Positions 37,632 to 41,428 of a stretch of 55,848 nt of DNA are shown piece by piece. The stretch lies in the IMG/VR virus record IMGVR_UViG_3300049020_000013, positions 1 through 55,848 of that record; one strand, given 5' to 3'. This stretch comes from a virus. Taxonomy: Duplodnaviria > Caudoviricetes. Within the stretch, counting starts at the first letter, position 1, and every line of letters starts with the position of its first letter. Both the position numbers and the translations under genes were made by a program. Under the pieces are notes generated by a model that worked only from the letters and a program-made list of their open reading frames with translations, searched no databases and was not told the origin of the DNA.

Positions 37632-38135
37632 ATGGACTTCGACGCAGCATTCGAGCGCCTCCTCGGGAACGAGGGCGGATTCACTCAGGACAGCCGAGAC
37701 CGAGGAAACTGGACCGGGGGCGAAGTCGGGAATGGCGTCTGCAAGGGCACCAAGTACGGCATCAGTGCGGCGGCATACCCGGGCGAGGACATTGAAGGGC
37801 TGACGCTGGAGCGCGCCCGCGAGCTGTACCGGCGCGACTACTGGGGCCAGGCCGGCTGCGATGCCGTGCCGCCCGCGCTCAAGTACGCCGTGTTCGACAT
37901 GGCGGTGAACAGTGGCGTGCGCGCCGCAGTTAAGGCGCTGCAGACGTCGGTTGGTGAGACGGTGGACGGGATCCTCGGCCCGCGCACGCTCCAGGCCATA
38001 CAGAGCATGCCGGCCGACCGCCTGCGGCTGCGGTTCGCCGCGAACCGGCTGCTGCTCCTGACCGAGGCGCACTCCTGGCCAGCGTATGGGCGGGGGTGGG
38101 TGCGTAGGGTTGCCAACGACGCGCTGGAGGCGTGA
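37632..38135 (+). CDS. Endolysin, glycoside hydrolase family 108 with PG-binding domain
   Basis: NEGG, DRGNWTGG, TKYGIS, FDMAVNSG, DGILGPRT, YGRGWVRR. Confidence 0.92.
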   Translation: MDFDAAFERLLGNEGGFTQDSRDRGNWTGGEVGNGVCKGTKYGISAAAYPGEDIEGLTLERARELYRRDYWGQAGCDAVPPALKYAVFDMAVNSGVRAAVKALQTSVGETVDGILGPRTLQAIQSMPADRLRLRFAANRLLLLTEAHSWPAYGRGWVRRVANDALEA

Positions 38136-38656
38136 TGGACTGGAAAGCAATCGTCGGCGCCGTCGCGCCGGCCCTCGGCACAGCGCTCGGCGGCCCGCTG
38201 GCCGGGCTCGCAGTGTCGACCATTTCCGATGCGCTGCTCGGCAAGCCGAACGGTACCGATGCGGAAATCGCCGTCGCGCTGAAGGCTGGCGGCCCGGACG
38301 CGCTACTGAAGCTCAAGGAGGCCGATCAGCACTTCGCCGTACGCATGCGCGAGCTTGACATCGACCTGGAGCGGATCAACCAGGCGGACCGGGGCAATGC
38401 CCGCGAGCGCGAGGCGAAAACCGGCGACAGGGCGACGCCTCGCGCGCTGGCCGGCATCATCGTCGGAGCGTTCCTTGGGATGGTCTGGTATGTGCTCAGC
38501 GGGCGCGTGGAGGGACTGAAAGACCCAGTGGCGGCCGGCATGATCGGGACGCTCATCGGCTACGTGTCCGCAAAGGCCGACCAGGTGGTGAGTTACTACT
38601 TCGGCAGCTCGTCCGGGTCGTCCGAAAAGACTGCGCTGCTGGCTCGTCGGCCGTGA
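38132..38656 (+). CDS. Holin-like membrane protein
   Basis: APALGTALGGP, DRGNARERE, two TM segments, YYFGSS. Confidence 0.7.
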   Translation: MMDWKAIVGAVAPALGTALGGPLAGLAVSTISDALLGKPNGTDAEIAVALKAGGPDALLKLKEADQHFAVRMRELDIDLERINQADRGNAREREAKTGDRATPRALAGIIVGAFLGMVWYVLSGRVEGLKDPVAAGMIGTLIGYVSAKADQVVSYYFGSSSGSSEKTALLARRP

Positions 38657-38666
38657 CCGAAGACGA

Positions 38667-38894
38667 CTACGCCGCCTTGAACTTCTCGCGGATGGTCTGT
38701 GCGAAATCCTCCCGCTCGATGTCGCGGGCATACGGCGGCGGCAACTGTTCGCACGCCTTCGCGCACTCCTCGGCGATCAGGGAGGCGAAGCGCGTAATTC
38801 CTGCCGCGTACAAGTCAAGCCCATGTTTCGGCGCCAAGCTCAGATCGCCAAGCCCAGCATCGTACGCCAGCCGCTCAACCAGTTCATTGTCCAT
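38667..38894 (-). CDS. Hypothetical protein
   Basis: RFASLIAEECAKAC is a common phage motif. Confidence 0.6.
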   Translation of the reverse strand: MDNELVERLAYDAGLGDLSLAPKHGLDLYAAGITRFASLIAEECAKACEQLPPPYARDIEREDFAQTIREKFKAA

Positions 38895-39072
38895 TCAGGC
38901 CCCCAATGACAGAAGAAGAGTATGCCGCCATCGAGCGCCGAGTGATCGACACCGACCCCCGGCCTGTCACCGCTGTCCCGACGCTGGATGTTGAGCGCAG
39001 GCAGGGGAAGACGGTGGAGGCCATCGCGCGGGCCATTCGTGGACAGGAACGTGCGGCGCCACCCGGGCATTT

Positions 39073-39281
39073 CCTGTCTAAAACTACCCGGCAGGTGATT
39101 CCGCCACGAGGCCAGTGATTCACGATCAGGTCCAATTCGTATTGGACAGTAGAGCCAGAAAACACCATATATATCAATAACTTAGGCAACGATACAGGCA
39201 TACTGCTGCATTACTGGAGTATGTTGCAACTCCTTGATATCGCTAACCTTTTTGTCCAACGTCTAACGCCTGTCTAAAACT
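39073..39281. other. attP: arm-type repeats flanking an AT-rich segment and a mutS-like core
   Basis: CCTGTCTAAAACT at 39073-39085 and 39269-39281, related TGTCCAA/CGTCTAA sites; minus strand 39223-39200 encodes HTPVMQQY; adjacent to the integrase 3' end. Confidence 0.8.
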
Positions 39282-40232
39282 TGGGCCGGTCACTTCCGGT
39301 GTTTCGCGCAGGCGAATGTAGCGCTCGGTCATGGCTGGGCTGGTATGGCCAAGCAACGCTTGCGCGTCATTTCCCTGGTGCTTGGTGTCGGTGCCCGACT
39401 TCGCGCGCAGGTCGTGTGGGGTGGCGTCTGCAATCCCGGCAGCCTCGCGCGCCTTGTGCCACTGCATCAGGACCGTTCGATAGTCCGGGGCCTTGCCGGT
39501 GCGCCCATGCAGCAGCGTCAGCGCCGTGACGTTCCCATAGAGTGTCTTGGCCCGGTCAACTGCCGCGCGCATCTCAGGTGTCCAGAGCACGCACAGCTTG
39601 GCGCCTGTCTTTTGCTGCTTGAACATGATGCCGCGCTCGGTGATGTCGCCCTTGCGGATGCGCAGCACATCGGTGATGCGCTGCCCGGTCAGGTAGAGCA
39701 GGTCCAGGATCACCTGCAATCGTGGTCCTGCGGCGTCACGGATGGCGAAAAACTCCTCGTCAGTGAGGTAGCGCTCCCGCTTGGCCTCCTCGTGCCGCTT
39801 GATGCCGATGCACGGGTTCGTGTCCACAAGCTGCCACTCGACGGCATAACCGAAGACCAGCCGCAGGAACGAGAGTTTCCGGTTGGTCATGTTCGGCGTG
39901 TCGGCGCCGGCCAGCTTGAGGGCAGCGACGTGCTTGGCCTTCACCTGCTCCGGTGCGAACTCGGCGAACGCCCGTTTGAGCGATTCCGCGGCAATGCGAT
40001 ACTGAGCGCGCGTGGCCGGCGCGACCTTCGGCGCGTGGTGCGAGTAGACCTTTTCGATCAACTCGGCCATGCCGCCTTTTGGGACGGCGATCCGGTTGGC
40101 ATAGTCCGCCAAAGCCTGGGCCATATCGGTTCCCAGGTCGTTCCACTTGCCGCCCTTGACGTACCAAAAGCGGCCGTGCTTGAAGTAGACGCACGGCGGT
40201 AGATGGCGATCCTTTTTTCTCGGGCGCGTCAT
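39243..40232 (-). CDS. int: Tyrosine integrase
   Basis: TGQRITD (R), QQKTG (K), HDLR, LLGH, Y. Confidence 0.95.
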   Translation of the reverse strand: MTRPRKKDRHLPPCVYFKHGRFWYVKGGKWNDLGTDMAQALADYANRIAVPKGGMAELIEKVYSHHAPKVAPATRAQYRIAAESLKRAFAEFAPEQVKAKHVAALKLAGADTPNMTNRKLSFLRLVFGYAVEWQLVDTNPCIGIKRHEEAKRERYLTDEEFFAIRDAAGPRLQVILDLLYLTGQRITDVLRIRKGDITERGIMFKQQKTGAKLCVLWTPEMRAAVDRAKTLYGNVTALTLLHGRTGKAPDYRTVLMQWHKAREAAGIADATPHDLRAKSGTDTKHQGNDAQALLGHTSPAMTERYIRLRETPEVTGPSFRQALDVGQKG

Positions 40233-40420
40233 AGTCGCAGCTTCGGTTCCCTGGCCTGGACTGTAGCGCCGCGCTCCACGTCGGAGCGCAGGACGACGAC
40301 GCTTCCATCCGGGCGGACCCGGAAGAAGATCCCGAGGCCCTTCAGCACGCGCTGCTGGGCGTCTGTTCGGCGCTTGCCAGTTAGCTCCGACACTTCAGCG
40401 CGCGTCAGTATCAAGCTCAT
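40229..40420 (-). CDS. DUF4224-like excisionase candidate
   Basis: LTRAEVSELTG...Q...L...GI.F..RPDG; overlaps the integrase start. Confidence 0.8.
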   Translation of the reverse strand: MSLILTRAEVSELTGKRRTDAQQRVLKGLGIFFRVRPDGSVVVLRSDVERGATVQAREPKLRL

Positions 40421-40460
40421 CTTCCCGACTCCTGGGGCTACTCTATTGGGGGTGGTGGGG

Positions 40461-40916
40461 TCACGTCATTCCATTGGCACGCAGCCCCAGCGCGTCCAAA
40501 TCCCAGATGCCGGCTTTCTGGATGCGTTCATAGACTGGTTTCTGCGGCAGCATGTTGTTGCGCTTGCAGGCCCACACGGCCGTGCCCCATACCGGATCCT
40601 TCCGATAGTGGTCGTACACGTCCTTCAGCTCGTTGAGGTTGATGGTCTCGGCGTCAGCGCAACCCCACGCGAAAACGTCGTTGGTATTGACGTTTAGGCT
40701 TGGGCGCTTTCGTGCCTCCTCAGGCCAATCCTTCTCCCACCAGTGGCTGTTCAGAAAGATGACGTTATTGATCAGCAGTAGCGCGAGGGCCGCCTCAGCT
40801 GTGAACTTCAGCTCGGTGGGCGGCATGTCTGGGAACGTTTTCTGGTCCCACTTCATTTCCCAGTAAACGTCGGAATCCTCGATGGTCCGCTCGATCTCTT
40901 GTGTGCTGCTGCTCAC
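40461..40916 (-). CDS. Hypothetical protein
   Basis: 151-aa ORF in the early-left operon. Confidence 0.65.
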   Translation of the reverse strand: MSSSTQEIERTIEDSDVYWEMKWDQKTFPDMPPTELKFTAEAALALLLINNVIFLNSHWWEKDWPEEARKRPSLNVNTNDVFAWGCADAETINLNELKDVYDHYRKDPVWGTAVWACKRNNMLPQKPVYERIQKAGIWDLDALGLRANGMT

Positions 40917-41428
40917 GCTTCATCTCCTGTAGGGGTGGGCGGGTTGAATTCAGTTTTGGAAGATCCGCTCATCTCGCTTGGCTGCCCACCTGGCGCGACG
41001 GTGGGGCCACTGTCCGGCAACAGCGCAAGCAGCGCTTCCGCAGCTCGGAGCCGGTAGTCCTTGTCCTTCGAGAGCCGCATGGCGACCTCGCCGATGCCTG
41101 TGTGCAGCCTCTCCACCTCTTGCTGCAGGGCGGCGATCCGATCTCGATCCGTGCCAATCACTGCGCCGACTGCATCGGGCAGCGGTAGGTGCATGTAGTC
41201 TCGGCCGCACCACGCCTTGTATGTCGCGTCCACCTCTTGCTGTAGGGAGCGGATACGGGAGAGGGCGGCGGCATGGTCGGTGAGTGGCACCGGCTCAACG
41301 CCATACCGCCTGGCTTGGTCGAAGGCGGGCAAGTCGCTCGCGTGCGCCTGTACCCATTCCTCGCCACCAGACTTCCAGACAACAAGCTGCGCAAGCACCG
41401 GCAGGTCTACGCCTTCGGTTGTGCTCAT
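40913..41428 (-). CDS. Hypothetical protein
   Basis: MSTTEG start with coupled overlaps. Confidence 0.55.
   Translation of the reverse strand: MSTTEGVDLPVLAQLVVWKSGGEEWVQAHASDLPAFDQARRYGVEPVPLTDHAAALSRIRSLQQEVDATYKAWCGRDYMHLPLPDAVGAVIGTDRDRIAALQQEVERLHTGIGEVAMRLSKDKDYRLRAAEALLALLPDSGPTVAPGGQPSEMSGSSKTEFNPPTPTGDEA

Follow-up and report, generated by a model that had tools for sequence, protein, structure and literature searches.

A putative mutS-targeting attachment site with a substitute MutS leader in a complete phage genome from soil

Known insertions at the start of mutS and related 5' ends

Insertion at the start of mutS with provision of a replacement start has already been described, and the phage analysed here is probably one more case. 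In the available part of Chu et al. 2017 (mBio; PMC5296598), mobile elements of 4 kb to over 150 kb, some of them prophages, are reported for hundreds of Beta- and Gammaproteobacteria, inserted in the part of mutS that encodes HTPMMQQ; they bring a new mutS start together with a promoter region, and the native start is cut off from its gene. They were sought by their integrases, through similarity to that of the V. splendidus 12B01 element (E <= 1e-6) within 300 bp of mutS. PCR demonstrated excision in V. splendidus 12B01, E. coli 536, P. putida F1 and B. multivorans CF2, and left a 2-bp deletion and a mutator only in 12B01; because hypermutation appeared in 12B01 only after loss of the element, the authors inferred that mutS is functional with the element in place, and they also suspected that more than one type of recombinase acts at the site (PMC5296598, same portion of the text). 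The accessible part of Tuanyok et al. 2008 (PMC2612704) describes the putative prophage GI8c at mutS of Burkholderia pseudomallei MSHR305 and also Bt-GI4 of B. thailandensis E264, the Burkholderia mutS prophage being flanked by the 15-bp direct repeat ACGCCGATGATGCAG. The statement of the initial annotation of this phage that mobile elements have been reported at the motif in Vibrio and Betaproteobacteria agrees with these two papers (PMC5296598, PMC2612704).

Like the elements of Chu et al., the phage studied here has its site in the HTPMMQQ-coding 5' stretch of mutS (the core encodes HTPVMQQY, and the joints are seen in two integrated relatives, G001 and G002), but it is represented by a complete soil phage genome in free form and not by an insertion. 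The repeat ACGCCGATGATGCAG of GI8c and Bt-GI4 encodes the same T-P-M-M-Q stretch, whereas the accessible part of the paper gives the repeat only and no replacement N-terminus of the kind found here (PMC2612704). The cultured, inducible temperate Pseudomonas phage phiAH14a (KU708004; Dziewit and Radlinska 2016, PMC4936722), whose host Pseudomonas sp. ANT_H14 is non-pathogenic, resembles this phage in its integrase (50.5% identical), in a leader ORF behind int and in repeats of the TTAGACAG type; its leader starts with ATG (MTDLSSHTPMMQQY...), 51 nt past the int stop, without the overlap with int seen here. The main text of the phiAH14a paper (PMC4936722) makes no mention of mutS, attP, attB, integration site or mismatch, so that the target of phiAH14a apparently goes unremarked in that text.

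The annotated mutS of E. coli 536 has beside it a divergent 249-aa DUF4102 (P4-integrase-like) gene, which exhibits no similarity to the integrase of this phage (E 0.13); thus, at least two recombinase types use the mutS site. At that locus (L065, NC_008253 2848976-2852507) mutS starts with MSTPENFDAHTPMMQQY, and the DUF4102 gene, which precedes it, ends where a catalytic domain would be expected; still further before mutS come IS elements and a reverse transcriptase gene. It is a different, apparently decayed type of element at the same mutS motif.

More distant parallels concern other genes. The SpyCI chromosomal islands reside at the 5' end of mutL in Streptococcus pyogenes, where, according to the available part of the source, integration gives a mutator phenotype (PMC4129442). 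As with the site proposed for this phage, a phage-like element there occupies the 5' end of a gene of mismatch repair, where its integration and excision can influence the mutation rate; as far as that text goes, the islands differ in the target (mutL), in the host phylum and in that a mutator arises on integration rather than the gene being rebuilt. SXT/R391 elements at prfC are integrative elements that replace the 5' end of their target. The dusA-targeting islands are likewise 5'-end targeting elements (PMC8409611, in the part available). SXT/R391 and the dusA islands follow the logic proposed here, in which the conserved 5' end of a housekeeping gene serves as the target and is replaced by one that the element brings, but they use other target genes and other integrase families.

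Organization of the attachment region

The window, i.e. the whole stretch of DNA analysed, is the 55,848-nt record of a complete virus of soil origin, with direct terminal repeats (exact terminal repeat 127 nt) and a G+C content of about 63%; since the record is complete and terminally repeated, the initial annotation was right to speak of a free phage. Pfam and phrog matches identified a tyrosine integrase gene, int (329 aa; 40232..39243, minus strand; PF00589 E 7.5e-16, phrog_1 integrase E 5.3e-44), the catalytic domain covering residues 163-309 with 58.8 bits against a cut-off of 27.1, and the stop codon being TAG at 39245-39243. Upstream of int lies an excisionase-like DUF4224 gene (63 aa; 40420..40229, minus strand; PF13986 E 4.2e-12, phrog_1266 excisionase E 7.5e-11), whose stop shares 4 nt with the int start.

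On the same strand, the ORF list and its translation reveal a MutS-leader ORF of 25 codons with a TTG start (39259..39182, minus strand; MDKKVSDIKELQHTPVMQQYACIVA, then a stop), which has equivalents after int in the relatives discussed below. As the int stop is reached only at 39245-39243, the TTG at 39259-39257 lies inside the int gene, and the last 17 nt of int are overlapped by the leader ORF. Twelve codons after the TTG comes the His codon that opens the 24-nt mutS-like core (39223..39200, minus strand), CAT ACT CCA GTA ATG CAG CAG TAT, which encodes HTPVMQQY, and five codons past the motif the frame is terminated by TAA. The earlier description of a quickly closed minus-strand frame that starts from TTG 39259 and overlaps the int stop is therefore accurate in all details, from the coordinates to the overlap. 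So is its identification of HTPMMQQY as a MutS N-terminal motif: the motif is N-terminal in MutS in every mutS inspected, i.e. in G001, G002, all 12 loci with the Val variant and E. coli 536. A six-frame translation of the 55,848 nt contains HTP(M/V)MQQY a single time, and none of 100 mononucleotide shuffles contains it. The domain search for MutS_I gave no match in the phage genome, as expected for a MutS-like piece of just 24 nt.

The endolysin gene (37632..38135; Glyco_hydro_108) and the structural genes lie on the far side of the leader ORF from int. In lambdoid phages attP is usually placed in this manner, between int and the lysis and structural side. No repressor was identified by Pfam in the presumed repressor region, where 48223-48945 matches AAA ATPase families instead (AAA_24, E 9.9e-07), and a megablast search of cultured phages with 38600-40700 gave no match.

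The leader ORF lies between two perfect direct copies of a 13-nt sequence (CCTGTCTAAAACT on the plus strand), at 39073-39085 and 39269-39281. The int-proximal copy (39269..39281, minus strand, reading AGTTTTAGACAGG), which is followed by a second GTTAGAC at 39267-39261, is a putative arm-type integrase site, and in the relatives motifs of the TTAGACAG type occupy the same position. The second copy (39073..39085, minus strand) would be the corresponding site of the int-distal arm. This arm also contains CTGTCCAATAC (39139..39149, minus strand), read by eye as a degenerate inverted TTAGACAG motif with a presumably similar function; its distance from the core matches, again by eye, that of CTGTCTAATAC in L018 and L037 and of CTGTCTAA in L019 and L049. 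Thus, putative repeated sites on both sides of the core are combined with an adjoining excisionase-like gene.

In contigs of the soil runs X3-X5, a close relative of the phage swaps 275 bases (38696-38970) for 559 other letters, while its attP-int region next to them is almost unchanged. The swapped segment, over the unannotated ORFs 38667-38894 (minus strand) and 38906-39118 (plus strand), looks like a small cargo region beside attP.

Together with the relatives, their integrated forms and the conservation of the core described in the next section, the anatomy of int, leader and excisionase gene argues that a temperate phage has its attP at 39073-39281, that the core of this attP copies the HTP(M/V)MQQY stretch of the mutS 5' end, and that integration would re-fuse mutS to a phage-supplied leader; we estimate the probability of this reading at about 0.88. 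Int would recombine the core at 39223-39200 with the same sequence in the mutS gene of the host, the crossover presumably falling in the 3' half of the core, and would probably be assisted by the DUF4224 excisionase-like protein and the TTAGACAG-type arm sites on both sides. The prophage would cut mutS off from the promoter and initial codons that belong to it. On the int-proximal side, the phage TTG and 12 leader codons would continue in frame into the remainder of mutS, so that a full-length MutS with a substituted, shorter leader could still be made, behind int and in the same orientation; on the far side, a stub made of the native promoter and leader would remain, ending in ACIVA and a stop. 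For this phage we infer the integration at mutS, the use of TTG as a start and the mode of mutS transcription from this anatomy and from the relatives.

Related integrases, integrated relatives and target range

Relatives of the integrase were sought in three collections, among cultured phages and, for the order to which one relative belongs, in 251 genomes. The census took in 13 other loci in which the integrase shares at least 49% identity and is followed by at least 120 nt of DNA, and H-T-P-M/V-M-Q-Q was found just past int, within about 90 nt of its stop, in 12 of them: L017 (integrase 99% identical, the locus being nearly identical to this phage), L018 and L037 (77-83%, L037 nearly identical to L018), L035 (69%), L041 (63%), L001 and L002 (60%, one single phage), L003 (56%), L019 (53%), L050, i.e. 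the Pseudomonas phage F_TK1718sp/PAK (51%, motif without the final Y), L049, i.e. phiAH14a (50.5%), and L067 (49%). When near-identical pairs are counted once, there are 10 distinct elements, this phage included. The sole exception among the 13, L036 (63% identical), has a degenerate HTHMLQH after int. The leader behind int on this metagenome contig reads ...LDHTHMLQHQNDEASI up to its stop, and its core has either drifted or fits an unusual target. In two of the collections 28 of 32 loci were examined (L039, L045, L047 and L048 were omitted, their integrase match being cut by a contig end); the motif was present in 6 of these 28, 7 of the 22 without it had less than 120 nt past int, and the remaining 15 motif-less loci, with at least 120 nt, have integrases at most 48% identical, L036 excepted.

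The comparison of eight attP forms revealed a mean pairwise identity of 0.87 for the 24-nt core, against 0.42 and 0.38 for the two 24-nt blocks before it and 0.33 and 0.35 for the two after it. Across the 10 elements seven columns of the core are variable; six of them are third codon positions of the MutS frame, and the seventh reflects an ATG to GTA change peculiar to this phage. Such a pattern is that expected of a phage segment kept matching a host coding sequence. The Val variant created by the change is natural in mutS: HTPVMQQY is encoded in 32 of 401 sampled genomes of the class of G001 (back-translated pattern), and all 12 of the loci inspected are MutS N-termini. Their leaders are very different, from a few to about 40 residues, which indicates that the segment replaced by the phage is naturally variable.

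Three relatives, with integrases about 49-61% identical, are found integrated: L002 in a Rubrivivax MAG (G001), L003 in a gammaproteobacterial MAG (G002) and L067 (G495). In all three, a start that belongs to the element comes after int in the same orientation and leads in frame into HTPMMQQY and MutS domain I (LRIK...FYRMGDFYELF); in G001 the fused mutS frame is open for 862 aa, with a MutS_I match of E 1.7e-41. For the Rubrivivax phage a natural attP/attL/attR set is available. Its free attP is on the 4.4-kb contig G003:C107 (L001/L012), its int-proximal junction with mutS on G001:C20, and its int-distal junction, in which the native mutS start MSADMTAPLPTAGTLDADLSRHTPMMQQY is joined to the phage sequence SEESR and a stop, on G001:C111. 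The phage flanks are identical across the attP and both junction contigs, and the block common to the set is ATGATGCAGCAGTAC, which places strand exchange inside ATGATGCAGCAGTAC. In G002 both junctions are on one contig, 18 kb apart, and an orphaned native mutS start is present at the far junction in both relatives (G001:C111 and G002:C4). The claim that attP targets mutS and supplies a replacement N-terminus thus draws its support from three integrated relatives and one attP/attL/attR set rather than from a lysogen of this phage.

The contig of L001 comes from a MAG labelled Candidatus Saccharibacteria, yet carries the free attP form of the phage of the Rubrivivax MAG (G001); probably, a phage contig was misbinned here. 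In L003 (G002:C4, ~380450-380790) the reading frame of mutS behind the 18-kb element breaks near codon 66: MutS_I positions 1-66 match in one frame and 61-112 in another. This may be a real frameshift, and hence a possible mutator, or a MAG assembly error.

For this phage, contigs of four of the 24 listed soil runs (X3-X6) were compared with 38000-40700. Those of X3-X5 pass through the core in the attP form, with no loose end or joint at ~39200, where rare integrated forms could not show in contigs; those of X6 are of low depth with many holes, including 38892-39221. Exact IMG/VR searches with either side of the core retrieved one other contig only, L017, in the attP form. The exact 24-mer of the phage is present in none of the 401 sampled genomes of the class of G001, the nearest one listed differing at 2 positions. 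The junctions that the initial annotation proposed to look for were found for the Rubrivivax relative and in G002, but not for this phage in the soil contigs or IMG/VR.

Relatives integrated elsewhere, for example at a tRNA gene, had been named as the finding that would speak against a mutS target. There are none among the close relatives (at least 49% identical), but integrases 44-48% identical are found at a pilin gene (phage PHB09) and those 33-35% identical elsewhere. A tRNA target was considered and rejected for seven integrated or related loci: the tRNA scan found a sole tRNA gene, about 2 kb from int in L004, which indicates that the family does not target tRNA genes in those loci. In L070 (G423:C15; integrase 34% identical) int is followed by an opposite-strand sequence that by eye resembles a tRNA gene.

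The integrase tree (38 rows, midpoint root, L067 absent) places L068 and L070 (33-35% identical) outside and reveals a clade of 21 rows (support 100/100; Achromobacter, Bordetella and phage PHB09) within a grade of mutS-type integrases; labels were assigned by a regular expression, by which L050, whose motif is without the final Y, appears as "other". By the same kind of label, a different core, GATGTAYTCNGTCA, is carried by 7 of the 21 rows of the clade, and in phage PHB09 it is the 14-bp site in the pilin gene (PMC7010805). In this sister clade (44-48% identical) GATGTAYTCNGTCA is conserved just past int in L004-L008, L027, L028, L030, L033 and L051, and its opposite strand reads as MTEYI, the beginning of a host gene directed towards int, i.e. 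a 5'-end target in the opposite orientation. Judged from the tree, mutS targeting may be the older state in the family, from which one sub-clade would have switched to the initial codons of a pilin-like gene. Other targets at 44-48% identity leave the mutS reading of the closer integrases untouched.

Expression of the rebuilt mutS and alternative readings

The in-frame start and leader appear to be supplied by the element, as a TTG in this phage and as leaders that run into mutS in L002, L003 and L067. With mutS thus placed downstream of int, the mutation rate of the host might change, as the initial annotation suggested. A consensus scan found no sigma-70-like promoter in 38600-41000, where 0.6 would be expected, which is weak evidence of absence, and nothing like a Shine-Dalgarno motif stands ahead of the TTG or of the candidate starts of the other elements among the 10. 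Half of these distinct elements (5 of 10) have a leader start that lies across or right next to the int stop (-20 to +3 nt), e.g. with a 17-nt overlap in this phage and as GTGA in the Rubrivivax phage, so that translation may depend on ribosomes that finish int. Perhaps, then, MutS synthesis in lysogens is coupled to Int through both transcription and translation of int, a proposal that we regard as tentative and rather improbable.

Or could the phage integrate at mutS with a leader that fails to restore normal MutS synthesis and serves mainly as recombination homology? Lysogens would then be poor in MutS and hence mutators, or their MutS level would track int expression. The promoter scan, the want of Shine-Dalgarno-like motifs, the TTG start codon and the contact with the int stop, on which translation may hinge, are all consistent with such a failure, as is the mutS split over two frames behind the element in G002. 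On the other hand, the G002 split may be an assembly error and the consensus scan is weak, an in-frame start and an open frame into mutS are kept in all three integrated relatives (over 862 aa in G001), and a functional mutS with its element in place was inferred for V. splendidus 12B01 in the available part of Chu et al. (PMC5296598). Failure of the leader is therefore unlikely, without being far-fetched.

Much less probable is an origin of the MutS-like ORF as a passive scar, i.e. host DNA picked up by imprecise excision, with the working attP elsewhere in the genome. It would agree with the finding of neither attB nor a lysogen for this phage, but the piece measures only 24 nt, occupies the canonical place beside int and the excisionase-like gene, between putative arm-type repeats, and has persisted in 10 distinct elements with flanks that are now just 33-42% identical; moreover, the recombination joint of a relative falls exactly in it. 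Finally, short ORFs are plentiful in a genome of 63% G+C, but a chance resemblance of the leader to MutS can be dismissed in view of the single six-frame match against none in the shuffles, the recurrence of the motif after int in 12 of 13 related loci and, decisively, the conservation of the core (0.87 against 0.33-0.42 in the flanks) with variation at third codon positions.

The preferred reading, an attP that re-fuses mutS to a phage leader, amounts as annotation to an ordinary temperate-phage attP with a target of a known kind. It adds to the known mutS-start inserters a complete free phage genome and a lambda-type integrase family that includes phiAH14a, one member of which offers a clean natural attP/attL/attR set. 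If the tentative coupling of MutS synthesis to Int were true, the mismatch-repair capacity of the host would be a phage-held dial on its mutation rate, and not the outcome of a neutral repair of the target gene.
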